Shown one piece after another: positions 15,180 to 19,992 of a stretch of 64,000 bases of DNA; positions within the stretch are counted from its first letter, which is position 1, and the number at the start of each line of letters is the position of its first letter. Made by a program: the position numbers and the translations under genes. Below the pieces are notes generated by a model that was given only the letters and a program-made list of their open reading frames with translations, was not told where the DNA came from and did not search any database. This DNA comes from Pseudobdellovibrionaceae bacterium (GTDB lineage: Bacteria > Bdellovibrionota > Bdellovibrionia > Bdellovibrionales > Bdellovibrionaceae), in assembly GCA_039810425.1 (NCBI GenBank), contig JBDHWW010000003.1, forward strand, positions 1 through 64,000, in the 5' to 3' direction.

Positions 15180-15908
15180 ATGTTGTACGGAAAACGAATC
15201 TACGAACCTCAGTCGCGCTTGTCGCACAATCGTTCCCAGAAGATGATTCTGAACAAGGCCTTCCAATACAAGTACACGGTCTTCTTGATGACCGCTGTCC
15301 TCGGTGGAGCGCTGTTATTCTTCGCGCCAGCGTACTACTTCATCAGTCAGAACTACACTCTCTTTACAAATCTTGCTTATGATACCCAACCAGCTCTTGT
15401 GACTCACCTCGAGCGCGAAGTGGTTTGGCTCGGTGTCGTTATGGTCCTTAGTCTGGTGATCATAGGTGGTTTCACCCTCGTCGCCGGTCTTCGCATGACC
15501 AAGAATCTTCTGGCCCCGTTGGTGCAAATGGAAAAGCACATGAAAGAGCTCATGTACGGTCACTGGCATATTCCTGATTACAAAATTACGAATGAAGACG
15601 ACTTCCGCGACTTGGCGATGACGTACGACTATTTCTATCGTTCATTGAAAGCCAACACCGAAGCCGAATTGAAGCTCATCGAAAAGCTTTCGATTGACCC
15701 TCAGAATCGTGAAGCCTACGCGGCTTGGAAGAATTTGATTACGATCAAACGCTCTCGCTTGGGCATGCAAGAGTTGCCGTTTGAAGAATTCACGGTGCAA
15801 CCGTTGTCACGCAACGGCCCTGATTTTGGCTCAGAAAAAACAAAGACGGCTGTTACCGGTCCCGACGTAGTGTCGATCGAAGCTGGGCGTCGGCGTCGCG
15901 TTTCTTAA
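15180..15908 (+). CDS. Two-TM HAMP-like membrane protein
   Basis: Two TM helices then APLVQMEKHMKEL..G..EDDFRDLAMTYD; GTCGATAA element just before ATG 15180. Confidence 0.7.
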   Translation: MLYGKRIYEPQSRLSHNRSQKMILNKAFQYKYTVFLMTAVLGGALLFFAPAYYFISQNYTLFTNLAYDTQPALVTHLEREVVWLGVVMVLSLVIIGGFTLVAGLRMTKNLLAPLVQMEKHMKELMYGHWHIPDYKITNEDDFRDLAMTYDYFYRSLKANTEAELKLIEKLSIDPQNREAYAAWKNLITIKRSRLGMQELPFEEFTVQPLSRNGPDFGSEKTKTAVTGPDVVSIEAGRRRRVS

Positions 15909-16305
15909 TGGCTTCGCGTTTATCGTGGGTTTTCTTCCCTTTAACTATGGCAATCTCAATTTTAGCGCGACCTTTTTTGAAGTAAATTTTCAAAGGCACG
16001 CAGCTATAACCCTTTTCACGAAGAGCATCGTAAATACGATCGAGCTCGATCCGATTCAGCAAAAGTTTACGCAATCTCTCAGGTTCATGATTGTTGTAAC
16101 TACTGGCTTTGTAGACCGCGATGTGGGCATTTTGCAGAAACGCTTCCGATCCACGGAAGCTCACATAGGAATCTTTGAGCTGAACATTCTTATCCCGCAA
16201 CGACTTGACCTCACTGCCTGTCAGCATAAGGCCTGCCTCAAAGGTATCAACGATCTCGTAGTTGAACCGGGCATTTTTGTTTTCTTGGATGATCAGAATG
16301 CTCAT
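15853..16305 (-). CDS. smpB: SsrA-binding protein
   Basis: NKNARFNYEI..EAGLMLTGSEVKSLR, RKLLL, KGKKTHDKRE. Confidence 0.97.
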   Translation of the reverse strand: MSILIIQENKNARFNYEIVDTFEAGLMLTGSEVKSLRDKNVQLKDSYVSFRGSEAFLQNAHIAVYKASSYNNHEPERLRKLLLNRIELDRIYDALREKGYSCVPLKIYFKKGRAKIEIAIVKGKKTHDKREAIKKRDADAQLRSTLRRDR

Positions 16306-16337
16306 TCCGAGGACCCTATCAGGGTCCTCGCGGGATG

Positions 16338-16705
16338 TCAAAACAGGGTTTGGGGCGGGATTGCATATCTAAGAAGATGGCTTAGCTCTCCGGAGGCCGC
16401 ACCCGTATGCCTAAAACCACACTTCTCGAGGACATGAATCGAGGCCCGGTTTTGTGGGTGTACGACAGCGGTCAGGGGCCTTTTAAGTTTTGATCGAGCT
16501 GCTAAATCAACAAGAGCCTTACAGGCCTCTGTTGCGAAGCCTTTGCCCGTATCGGGAAATGCATAAACGACATCGGGCTGGTTTCGAGCCCCTCCATAAG
16601 AAATTCTCTGACGTGTTCGTTTTTTGTGAGTGCATAGAAGTCATCGAAATCTTCTTCGGAAATGGGGCAGTAAAAAAGTCGCGGAGACATTGGCGTCAAT
16701 GACAT
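16338..16705 (-). pseudogene. Disrupted RimJ/RimL-type GNAT acetyltransferase
   Basis: N-terminal part SPRLFYCPISEEDFDDFYAL..NEHVREFL in one frame; C-terminal part GKGFATEAC..VVHPQNRASIHVLEKCGF in another frame; central strands missing. Confidence 0.75.
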
Positions 16706-16741: not shown

Positions 16742-16774
16742 CACCTTCGCCGATGGTAGTGGGGCGTTATTTTG
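16742..16774 (+). repeat. 33-bp direct repeat, copy 1 (CACCTTCGCCGATGGTAGTGGGGCGTTATTTTG)
   Basis: Identical to 17843-17875. Confidence 0.95.
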
Positions 16775-16781
16775 CCGTAAG

Positions 16782-17762
16782 TTATAGGTCCTCGGGCCTT
16801 AACCCCAAATCCATGACCGCCACAAGAGAGACCAGATAGGCTACCTCTTCAATATGCCCTAAGACTTTTTGCATCTTAATTTCGGTAGGGCCTGGCATTT
16901 GATTCATACCAAAAACCTCTACCGTCTCCCCTCGAACCACAGCACCACCAATGCGACTAATTTGAGGCAACATTGCTGTGTTCTTAGAAAAGTAATATGT
17001 CTTACCTTTTCTTATAGTCTCATTGGCAGCGAACTCGACAACTGCGCGATCGTCCGCATTTAGTATCGTCGACATTTCTGGACCGACATCTTTATACAGC
17101 TGCAAATAACCTGAATGTATTTCTTTTGCTGAAGCACTGAGTTCTTTGATGACCACAACGTCTGGCGAGAGTTCGGCCACTTCTTTTTTATTAAGCAGAT
17201 GCTCTGGAATCACCACAATGTATGGTTTCGTATGAGGCAATAAACTGTGCCCATCCCACATGGTGACTGGAATGTTTTTACCTCCAGACGCTAAGTGCTT
17301 TTTAATATATTGGGCAGTTATTTCTAAACCACTCACCCCGCCAACAACGACAGAAATCTTTTCTAACTGACTCATGATAAATCTCCTCTCTTGTGGGCCC
17401 ATGCCCTGATTTTTACTATGCAAAGAGGATAGAATTTTATAAATCACCTGTTCAGCACTGTGGAGTCGTATCTGCTCTTTCTGAAGATGACTGAGTCTCT
17501 CTTTTAAAAGAACTTCCAGACGAGCTGGATTCATCGAGGTATCAACCTCGAGAAGTGACTTGATTTCATTCAACGTAAAACCAAATGATTTGAACTGTTT
17601 AATTCTTTGTACAACTTCCACTTGTTCTTCTGTGTAGTAGCGGTACTTATTCTCGCCACGAGTATGAGCGGCAATAAGCCCTGCGGCCTCATACACACGA
17701 AGCGTTCGTTGAGTGAGCGAAACTTTCTTTGAAAATTGTCCTATGGATAACCAGTTCTTCAT
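16782..17762 (-). CDS. MerR family regulator fused to a Mur-ligase-like C-terminal domain
   Basis: LSIGQFSKKVSLTQRTLRVYE..GLI..YRYY..GFTLNEIK; C-terminal SPDVVVI..ILNADD..YYFS. Confidence 0.85.
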   Translation of the reverse strand: MKNWLSIGQFSKKVSLTQRTLRVYEAAGLIAAHTRGENKYRYYTEEQVEVVQRIKQFKSFGFTLNEIKSLLEVDTSMNPARLEVLLKERLSHLQKEQIRLHSAEQVIYKILSSLHSKNQGMGPQERRFIMSQLEKISVVVGGVSGLEITAQYIKKHLASGGKNIPVTMWDGHSLLPHTKPYIVVIPEHLLNKKEVAELSPDVVVIKELSASAKEIHSGYLQLYKDVGPEMSTILNADDRAVVEFAANETIRKGKTYYFSKNTAMLPQISRIGGAVVRGETVEVFGMNQMPGPTEIKMQKVLGHIEEVAYLVSLVAVMDLGLRPEDL

Positions 17763-17778
17763 TCTTGCCTCTAGAAGA

Positions 17779-17809
17779 AGCCTAAAGTTTGACATTACGT
17801 CAAGGTCAA
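17779..17809 (-). promoter_or_regulatory. MerR-type promoter with 19-bp spacer and dyad operator
   Basis: TTGACC-N19-TAGGCT with TTGAC-GTAAT-GTCAA dyad in the spacer. Confidence 0.85.
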
Positions 17810-17842
17810 ATCAGTTTTGAGAAAATATCAAATGGCCCGGAT

Positions 17843-17875
17843 CACCTTCGCCGATGGTAGTGGGGCGTTATTTTG
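17843..17875 (+). repeat. 33-bp direct repeat, copy 2
   Basis: Identical to 16742-16774. Confidence 0.95.
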
Positions 17876-18130
17876 TGAATGAGGACTATTTTTTATCGGC
17901 GCAAATTAATTCTTGACGTGAGTTTGGGGTGATTTCCCTCTTTACGCCTGTAGAAACAAGAAGTGTTTTAATAAGCTAATACAATTCATCACAAGGCTTG
18001 CACGCTTTTAATTTTTCCAAAATGAGGCCGCTCTCATGCGACCTGAAATCATCTCTGGTGGCGGATTTTAAGGGCCAAAATGGAGCTTAAAAAACGCATG
18101 CTATACCTTTTCGCAGAGAAGGAATTAGCC

Positions 18131-19150
18131 ATGAAACATATCAACTATATGATTGATGAGAATATCAAAAAGCTTTCCGACAAAACTTTGCTCGCGCAAA
18201 CGGATCTCTTAGCGCTCGAACATCGCAAGAACTCAATTCTGCTTTTACGTCACCTTCGTGAAATTGAAGTGCGCCGTCTGTTTGTGGATCTTGGTTTTAC
18301 GTCTATGCATAAGTATTGCATTCAACAGCTTAAGTTTTCAGAAGGCGAAACGCAAAGACGCCTGACCTCGGCAAGACTATTAACGGAGCTTCCAGAGATT
18401 GAAGAGAAAATCGAAGCCGGCAGTTTGAGTGTTACAAACCTTTCTAAAATCCAGAGTTTTCTCAAACAGGAGAAAGCCGCTTCTCATACTTTGAGCAAAG
18501 AAGAGAAATTAGACTTGATTGAAGAAATGCAAAACAAATCCACCCGCGAAGTGGAAAAAGAGCTTATCAGCCTTTCTCATCAGCCAGCCCTTTTAGCTGA
18601 GAAGTTTCAAGGCGCTAAGGCGTCTATGCTTTTAAGCGAGGTCGGTCAAGACTACCAGAAATTTGAAACTCATCTTTCAGAAGAACACCAAGCACTTTTA
18701 ACAGAGTTTAAAAATCTCTATGCCCATGAACTTAACGGACACGGCAATGGCGATGTTCTTGTGTTTTTATTAGAAAAAGCAGTTCAACATAAAAAGAAAA
18801 AGATGGGTCTTATAGATAAGACGAAGCCTTTGCTCAAGAAAGTAAAATCTGCGAACAAAAGTGACGCCACCAATGCTGCGCCACCACCATCGGCGCCGAA
18901 GGTGAACATAACTCCGTACCGAAAATACATCAGCGTCCATACCAAAAAACATATTTGGCAGCGTGCCCAATCTTGTTGTGAACACCGAGACTCCGCAAGC
19001 CAAAAGCGCTGTGCCTCGAAGTTTGCACTGCAGATAGATCACGTTCAGTCACTAGCACTGGGTGGTTCAGATGAAATACCAAACTTACAATTGCTGTGTT
19101 GGGCGCATAATTCGCGACGGGCGATAAAGACTTTTCGTCAAAGGCATTAA
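18131..19150 (+). CDS. HNH endonuclease with DUF222/13E12-like N-terminal domain
   Basis: LREIEVRRLF..GFTSM..YC..L.FSEGET.RRL..ARLL..LPE...I..GSLS; C-terminal C-x10-C..QIDH..GG..NLQLLCWAHN; GAAGGA SD. Confidence 0.9.
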   Translation: MKHINYMIDENIKKLSDKTLLAQTDLLALEHRKNSILLLRHLREIEVRRLFVDLGFTSMHKYCIQQLKFSEGETQRRLTSARLLTELPEIEEKIEAGSLSVTNLSKIQSFLKQEKAASHTLSKEEKLDLIEEMQNKSTREVEKELISLSHQPALLAEKFQGAKASMLLSEVGQDYQKFETHLSEEHQALLTEFKNLYAHELNGHGNGDVLVFLLEKAVQHKKKKMGLIDKTKPLLKKVKSANKSDATNAAPPPSAPKVNITPYRKYISVHTKKHIWQRAQSCCEHRDSASQKRCASKFALQIDHVQSLALGGSDEIPNLQLLCWAHNSRRAIKTFRQRH

Positions 19151-19158
19151 CGCCAGCG

Positions 19159-19992
19159 CTATTCGAAGCCGAATTTCTTATAAAGCGCTACGAACTGCTC
19201 TGGGCTGAGTTCTTCGCCGCGGACGGTTTCTTTAAAACCCATTTCGGCGAGCCAACCCACGAGTTGGGCTTCGCTGATGTTTTTTTGCGAATAAAAAACC
19301 GATAGGTTTTTCTTTAGGAGCTTCCGGCGTTGAGCAAAGGCGGCCTTCACAAAACTTAAGAAAGACTTGGGCTGTGTCAACACGGGCGGCTTGCGAGTAA
19401 ATGCCAAAACCCGCGAAGCCACACGCGGAGCGGGATCGAAATCCCCCGGGCCAGCTTCCGTAATCTTTTCGGCTTTCCAGAATGTTTGTGCAATCACCGT
19501 CAACAAACCATAAGCATCGGTCTTTGCCGTCGCAGTAATTCTTTGCGCCACTTCTTTTTGGAACATCAGCACCATGTGATCCAAACCACCCTCACCGTCC
19601 AGGCAGCGATCAATCACAATACTTGAAGAAATCTGATACGGAAGATTACTGACCAAAACTTTTTTGCCCGCCGCTGAAGAATAAAACTGCTGCCAATCCA
19701 ATTGCAGGGCATCACCTTCGATCACCTCGAGCCCCTGAGAGCGCCAGAATTCGGCGAGCACGCGATCCAACTCAATCACGCGGAAATTCCCGCACATCTC
19801 GCGCAAGAAATAAGTCAAAGCCCCCGGCCCAGGCCCCACTTCGATCAAGGTTTCAGCAGAAAACTCGCGGGCTTTGTTGATGATTCTTTCAATCACCACA
19901 TCGCTGACCAGAAAGTTCTGCCCCAGCGACTTCTTGGCTTCAATACCCAGAGCCTCTTGTACGACTTTCAGGCGTTGCCGAGCGGTACTCAT
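19159..19992 (-). CDS. rsmA: 16S rRNA adenine dimethyltransferase
   Basis: KKSLGQNFL, EVGPGPGALT, SNLPYQIS, MFQKEVA. Confidence 0.97.
   Translation of the reverse strand: MSTARQRLKVVQEALGIEAKKSLGQNFLVSDVVIERIINKAREFSAETLIEVGPGPGALTYFLREMCGNFRVIELDRVLAEFWRSQGLEVIEGDALQLDWQQFYSSAAGKKVLVSNLPYQISSSIVIDRCLDGEGGLDHMVLMFQKEVAQRITATAKTDAYGLLTVIAQTFWKAEKITEAGPGDFDPAPRVASRVLAFTRKPPVLTQPKSFLSFVKAAFAQRRKLLKKNLSVFYSQKNISEAQLVGWLAEMGFKETVRGEELSPEQFVALYKKFGFE

Follow-up and report, generated by a model that had tools for sequence, protein, structure and literature searches.

Why should a sequence of 33 base pairs (bp) stand on both sides of a single gene, and recur as its near reverse complement inside the coding sequence of the nuclease gene next door? 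This question is raised by a small islet in the window, by which we mean the whole stretch of 64,000 nucleotides analysed here (contig JBDHWW010000003.1 of assembly GCA_039810425.1, from a Pseudobdellovibrionaceae bacterium). The nuclease gene lies at 18131..19150 on the plus strand and encodes a DUF222-like/HNH protein of 339 residues; the gene between the repeats, merR, encodes a MerR-family regulator. The first-pass annotation of this DNA had read the repeats as the ends of a cassette that travels with its cargo. Judged by sequence comparison across the nuclease family, the repeat is instead the upstream signature site of the neighbouring HNH gene, present here in duplicate. In this Bdellovibrionota family a clade-specific site of 16-35 bp lies about 270 bp 5' of the gene and is found again, inverted, in the codons of the interdomain linker.

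The two copies, at 16742-16774 and 17843-17875, are identical at 33 of 33 positions and lie 1101 bp apart, as had been claimed. Both are on the minus strand with respect to the linker copy. The inner one is where the family usually has it, 289-256 bp ahead of the probable start codon, and the outer one is the extra duplicate. The linker copy (18871..18905, plus strand) is embedded in the codons for NAAPPPSAPKV and holds the 20-bp palindrome at 18885-18904 just as it had been described; the alignment of the repeat core to 18878-18904, with 22 of 24 positions matching and a gap of 3 nucleotides, was likewise reproduced. Both 33-bp copies share a 3-nucleotide deletion at the centre of the palindrome, and their boundaries match the edges of the conserved family site. 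A genome search found the 33-mer exactly twice in 3.54 Mb, the next-best matches having 10 mismatches. The pair is the sole exact direct repeat of at least 25 bp with a spacing of 0.2-5 kb on the window's contig; genome-wide there are 20 such entries, 10 of them on contig C20. An assembly artefact had been named as an alternative, and sequencing run X1, which may be the source sample, contradicts it (runs X2-X4 hold only short pieces). In X1 the 33-mer forms a separate unitig with a depth of 35.7, the flanks have depths of 16.1 and 16.0 and the merR piece 17. These values fit two real copies of the 33-mer and about one copy of merR per chromosome. Because the 33-mer has about twice the flanking depth and the merR piece single depth, the repeat pair is no assembly artefact.

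Both close homologues in genome G005 (72-73%) have one upstream copy, inverted with respect to the linker copy. For a wider comparison 104 non-identical full-length genes were assembled and two with short upstream DNA were dropped, leaving 102, among which relatives are not independent and four genes are near-identical. With a pair defined by a match score of at least 28 between the linker and positions -360 to -210, an inverted match was found in 31 of 102 genes, and in 0 of 102 in each of two control windows. Five of the 102 genes have a direct match. A gene's own upstream region ranked first of 31 in 23 of the 31 positive genes. In a held-out set drawn mostly from other families, matches occurred at -400 to -230 in 9 of 56 genes, at -210 to -40 in 4 of 56 and further upstream in 0 of 55, and these were mostly 16-20-bp palindromes. 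The sequence of the site varies between clades and is not always palindromic, and some upstream and linker copies match over 31-36 bp. One clade has an upstream copy that is better conserved than the linker copy.

The linker codons point to selection on the nucleotide sequence. In the window's clade (17 of 20 loci parsed) the serine codons of the site are TCG in 12 of 13 cases and the next codons end in G in 16 of 17, compared to 78 of 393 elsewhere in these genes; therefore constraint acts on the DNA. The earlier proposal that the palindrome is kept at the DNA level and belongs to the nuclease family is borne out. Some variants of the anatomy were noted. In L427 (G070), where the gene is intact, both sites point the opposite way from usual, and in the four loci L414-L417 the second site lies just past the HNH stop codon and not in the linker. 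G029 (L186-L213) has 29 family matches, with a 10-bp linker motif repeated upstream as tandem arrays in either orientation. At G000:C59:10686-11025 a deleted remnant of the same clade keeps both sites, and a divergent gene of 258 residues starts at the upstream site.

Between the site and the gene lies a control region of fixed length. The family layout consists of the site, then 20-45 bp further on a TTGAC-like -35 hexamer and, some 30 bp ahead of the start codon, an extended -10-like motif. In the window the hexamer is at 17913..17918, the extended -10-like motif at 18098..18107, and the 179-bp spacer between them at 17919..18097, all on the plus strand. The length of the spacer is conserved in the family and its sequence is not; a GC periodicity of 10-11 bp is seen in the aligned set. 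Both motifs were detected in 117 of 156 genes, at a distance of 178-182 bp in 89 and 160-164 bp in 26. With near-duplicates removed, 86 of 134 genes fall into the classes 159-164, 168-171 or 177-182 bp (controls at most 7), and so do 27 of the 56 held-out genes (controls at most 3). The 168-171 class, from other families, was added after the held-out set had been seen; without it the earlier two account for at least 13 of the 56. A genome-wide promoter type with a long spacer was considered and rejected, as G000 shows no such peak: there the motif pair spaced by 178-180 bp is confined to the three family genes. A pair at 161 bp near position 203 of G000:C4, at a contig end, may mark a fourth family gene that was not assembled. 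An inverted symmetry of the hexamer and the -10-like motif was rejected as well (own pairs 9.1, cross pairs 9.2). The first-pass annotation had proposed to look for an associated RNA; we found no Rfam match, and the spacer gave no sign of folding (mean z -0.7 and -0.5). The control region may be a loop or wrap organised by protein. The promoter motif also bears on the start of the gene: it overlaps the ATG at 18080, which makes 18131 the probable start.

The protein would be built from a long N-terminal helix, a KorB/ParB-like helical domain, a predicted second dimer region, a linker and the HNH domain. The HNH domain (PF01844) is found in 45 of 45 homologues, with H321, N335, C340, H343 and N344 invariant. 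The DUF222 (PF02720) match of 22.5 bits (E 8e-5) lies under the Pfam cut-off of 24.4; 34 of 45 homologues match at E<=0.05, and in the Atlas neighbour cluster DUF222 is annotated on 12% of the members. Scans of Pfam and NCBIfam gave only HNH and DUF222 families and no HUH/Y1 tyrosine transposase. NCBIfam guided_IscB matches weakly and over the HNH region only (21 bits, cut-off 175). A search of PDB sequences and PADLOC gave nothing firm, and viral contigs held no relative. The structure model is confident for residues 30-180. For residues 47-167 the best fold matches are KorB 8qa8 (Z 5.7, root-mean-square deviation 3.5, 99 residues aligned) and ParB-parS 6s6h (Z 5.7, 5.8, 106), followed by KorB 1r71 (Z 5.2, 3.3, 98) and Spo0J 1vz0 (Z 4.6, 3.0, 91). 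The KorB/ParB family thus makes up four of the top 27 rows, at Z 4.6-5.7 and tied with unrelated rows. We therefore regard a KorB/ParB-like DNA-binding fold of the N-terminal part as predicted at modest Z, and the protein may have borrowed a KorB-type DNA-binding domain. An N-terminal CTPase domain has no Pfam match and the model has one long helix there, where a missing fold match does not exclude such a domain. A homodimer is predicted for residues 28-245, joined by the first helix and by residues 191-242, with a score of 0.69 against 0.01 for the best control. Of 30 solved pairs 20 reach this mark, as does one of 23 single chains; for the predicted homodimer contact agreement is at least 84% and the model confidence (pLDDT) at least 81.

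The genes are mobile. The family is present in 84 of the 182 genomes of the bacterial family and in 123 of 301 genomes of the phylum, the two counts being based on different thresholds. Pairs of paralogs share homology that starts at the site or the promoter and runs to the stop codon or ends as much as about 100 bp short of it. Empty-site alleles, whose existence had been an open prediction, were found by comparing related loci. At the lipB/doxX locus (L065) of G085 the element begins 8 bp past the host stop codon, at the site, and is followed by a GNAT gene; in G086 the place holds a terminator of 36 bp and nothing else, and in G074 one finds a stub of the site (12 bp), a remnant of the HNH gene and a cargo gene other than that of G085. 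These comparisons show true insertions that start at the site and have no target duplication. Where G085 carries a member of the window's clade, G086 has a family gene from another clade (L359). Classical insertion sequences have fixed terminal inverted repeats and produce a target-site duplication. The copies studied here have ragged 3' ends and lack this combination: target-site duplications showed no excess in the 102 loci except for four copies in G004, and there is none at the L065 junction. The G004 copies (1352 bp, sharp ends, mostly 9-bp duplications) had been a candidate for autonomous transposition. This was rejected, as the same right end flanks a transposase of 442 residues, presumably of the ISL3 type by its motifs. 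To judge from these ends, the HNH gene in the G004 copies is a passenger on another transposon, and we have set them aside as evidence. G004 (L136-L165) thus contains a non-autonomous 1352-bp element with the ends of another transposon, plus many deletion derivatives. Across the family the downstream neighbour gene is convergent in 94 of 159 loci, and no tandem copies were seen in 169 genes.

How, then, did the window's site come to be doubled? The gene between the copies (16782..17762, minus strand) encodes 326 residues from the MKNWLS start, has its own promoter/operator dyad at 17785..17811 (minus strand), and has a homologue with 80% protein identity in G115, which belongs to another genus. 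The DNA identity to this closest homologue is 76% over 16792-17833, and the homology stops about 10 bp inside each repeat. In G115 merR occurs without the repeat, so the regulator has been inserted at the site of the element, with duplication of the whole site. This is also where the cassette-end proposal fails, since merR and the repeat do not travel together. The first-pass annotation was right that the repeats enclose one gene; the islet also has a second cargo outside them, a frameshifted gene for a GNAT acetyltransferase at about 16341..16705 (minus strand). The islet thus comprises the broken GNAT gene, merR and the HNH gene, and lies between smpB (15853..16305, minus strand) and rsmA (19159..19992, minus strand), whose stop codon is 8 bp from that of the HNH gene. 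A near-perfect hairpin of 22 bp (16308-16329) directly precedes the smpB start codon. In four of six genomes of the same genus smpB and rsmA are adjacent and the islet is missing; the other two carry different islets there. The islets at this junction in G001 (about 6 kb) and G005 (about 2.4 kb; L262, L263) are unrelated, and the junction is therefore a hot spot.

That such sites flank varying cargo, as had been proposed, holds for the sister clade and not for the window's own clade. A pattern search for the latter in 182 genomes gave 14 matches, and the 12 that were inspected are at family genes or remnants. For the sister clade 44 genomes gave 73 matches with up to one mismatch, 21 of them exact, against 35 control matches. 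Twenty regions were selected from these matches for inspection. They contain solo sites past the stop codons of host genes, facing pairs with cargo between them next to an HNH gene, and sites that closely follow an HNH stop codon; in several solo-site loci there is no partner site nearby. For one host gene 30 of 43 loci were examined. Eight of the 10 closest species have a solo site 8-87 bp past the stop codon, followed by a convergent gene from one of five families, and the sites are near-perfect while both flanks change. In G080 an exact direct pair of 28 bp, 1474 bp apart, encloses one CHASE3-GAF gene and by its layout is a twin of the window's arrangement. In two more direct pairs of the sister clade the copies agree to 93% and 89%. 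Genes of the GNAT and MerR types are found repeatedly as cargo.

Microsatellites are a further feature: 10 of 109 elements have them immediately beyond the outer edge of the upstream site. At other positions the counts were 2 of 109 past the stop codon, 0 of 109 for the spacer and 1 of 108 further up, and ordinary gaps of G000, a different genome background, had 0 of 467. The repeats, with units of 4-15 bp, are at L054, L079, L084, L090, L118, L121, L007, L021, L022 and L181.

In the explanation that we prefer, whose chance of being right we put at about even, a selfish mobile HNH nuclease binds its own signature site and triggers capture of DNA by break repair, sometimes duplicating the site as around merR. 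The protein dimer would bind the site of its clade and repress its own gene through the upstream and the intragenic copy. At times it would nick or cut the DNA beside the site, and host repair would join in the element or foreign DNA at the break; the traces would be ragged junctions, slipped repeats and, in some cases, a duplication of the site. Binding, autorepression through two sites, cutting and repair capture are all steps that we infer. More tentatively, the family could represent a new class of mobile element and gene-capture device, in which a clamp-like KorB/ParB-type dimer fused to HNH reads a site that stands both before its own gene and within it, measures a control region of constant length (162, 170 or 179 bp) and cuts beside the site. 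Such an element would spread without a transposase, an integrase or an RNA guide and would seed solo sites that become cargo-exchange points in predator genomes; we see this as possible and clearly less secure than the simpler explanation.

A number of observations weigh against this explanation. In the 182 genomes neither a solo site nor a second direct cargo pair was found for the window's clade, and among the 31 positive loci an extra direct copy exists only in the window and at L019. About half of the 73 one-mismatch matches in the sister clade are expected by chance. No pair reaches the threshold in 71 of the 102 genes. The recognition helix predicts the site no better than the rest of the protein does (partial r about 0.09, no peak). 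The fold matches have Z below 8, a range in which the tool warns of common helical arrangements, and Foldseek gave no match at E<=0.001. The window's own 33-bp copies, carrying the 3-nucleotide deletion, may be dead. Finally, the host locus with the solo sites also varies in 20 genomes that lack the clade's site (9 neighbour families), which means that variability does not depend on the site. This variability is what one would expect if the two sites were operators only, closing a repression loop on a toxic nuclease, with solo sites as relics and cargo brought in by host recombination at intergenic hot spots. The KorB-like fold with its predicted dimer, the place of the site shortly before the -35-like motif and the better conservation of the upstream copy in one clade suit this reading too, and KorB represses from distant operators according to the available part of PMC11790492. 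We nevertheless find it rather doubtful: the duplications stop at the edges of the site (33 bp in the window, 28 bp in G080), microsatellites cluster outside it, solo sites stay near-perfect despite changing flanks, and the pairs that match over 31-36 bp exceed one footprint.

It is unlikely that the two copies instead pair as nucleic acid, through a single-stranded fold-back or an RNA-DNA hybrid that guides copying or cutting, the site being read as a structure like REP or attC. The direct orientation or tandem arrays in some families, the solo sites without a partner nearby and the missing Rfam match and folding signal all speak against it. Pairing would account for own pairs scoring above cross pairs within a clade (37 and 27; 10 of 13 above the median in the window's clade), and for the 34 of 50 transition mismatches that would be G-T wobbles on the bottom strand, where the loci are related and not independent. 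The duplication in the window could also have arisen once and by chance, through illegitimate recombination independent of anything the protein does. It is the sole such case in its own clade and both copies share the deletion; the independent exact twin and the two near-twins in the sister clade, and the match of the repeat boundaries to the conserved site, make an accident very improbable. Least credible of all is an ON/OFF switch in which inversion would separate the HNH domain from the rest. The inverted sites do bracket the promoter and the N-terminal part, but an HNH half on the opposite strand was found upstream in 0 of 169 N-terminal genes (a set of loci biased to full-length matches), and no strand-change joint was seen in four sequencing runs, whose contigs drop rare variants.

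Several known systems resemble parts of this anatomy. Integrons have a tyrosine integrase gene beside an array of cassettes, each cassette carrying its own site. Gene-plus-site units stacked beside a divergent enzyme gene are common to both; unlike an integron, the islet has no tyrosine integrase among its open reading frames, its merR homologue elsewhere lacks the site (one close homologue), and the junctions are ragged. IscB/HEARO systems are RNA-guided HNH nucleases with an associated structured RNA. The weak guided_IscB match is a likeness confined to the HNH region, and no structured RNA was found here. KorB-OB of RK2 and ParB-parS are the best, though modest, fold matches of the protein, and a predicted dimer joined at both ends and 16-20-bp palindromes in several clades are further likenesses; the family differs in the fused HNH domain, in having no CTPase domain evident in the model and in the absence of partition genes nearby. 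REP/REPIN-RAYT systems are the closest match in how they work, since they too combine a nuclease gene with short clade-specific sites, inverted pairs and extragenic copies (PMC3337134, in its available part). Membership fails on the enzyme, which here is HNH and not a tyrosine (HUH) transposase. In addition, one site lies inside coding sequence, there are few copies per genome and not hundreds, and the sites of some clades are not hairpins.

The family is probably a distant branch of the DUF222/13E12 elements. Like 13E12/REP13E12 (DUF222, PF02720) it has a weak DUF222 match followed by an HNH domain and many dispersed copies. The available part of PMC3381160 calls the 13E12 genes insertion elements that hold phage attachment sites, and describes LexA/DNA-damage control and an internal prophage attachment site. 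A self-site, a fixed spacer and cargo capture are not described for them in the accessible portions of PMC3381160, PMC13157036 and PMC9317374, the mycobacterial side being compared by description only. The phiRv1 parallel drawn by the first-pass annotation is a loose analogy only, since phiRv1 integrates via its own phage serine integrase (PMC9317374, as far as available). We found no account of the paired-site anatomy in the literature searched, with subscription journals and supplements outside its scope.

DUF222-like/HNH genes are abundant and are annotated merely as 'HNH endonuclease', with no mechanism in the literature searched. One large branch of them now has defined cis parts, namely a clade-specific site, a control region of fixed length and mapped insertion junctions, and the way in which such elements spread can now be put to a direct test with a single protein and an oligonucleotide of 30 bp. 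If the capture model is true, these genes would provide a route of gene acquisition that needs neither transposase nor integrase, and a natural panel of compact nucleases (about 330 residues) with different long target sites. If they indeed form a new class, the same logic may explain the unsolved repeats of the DUF222/13E12 elements.

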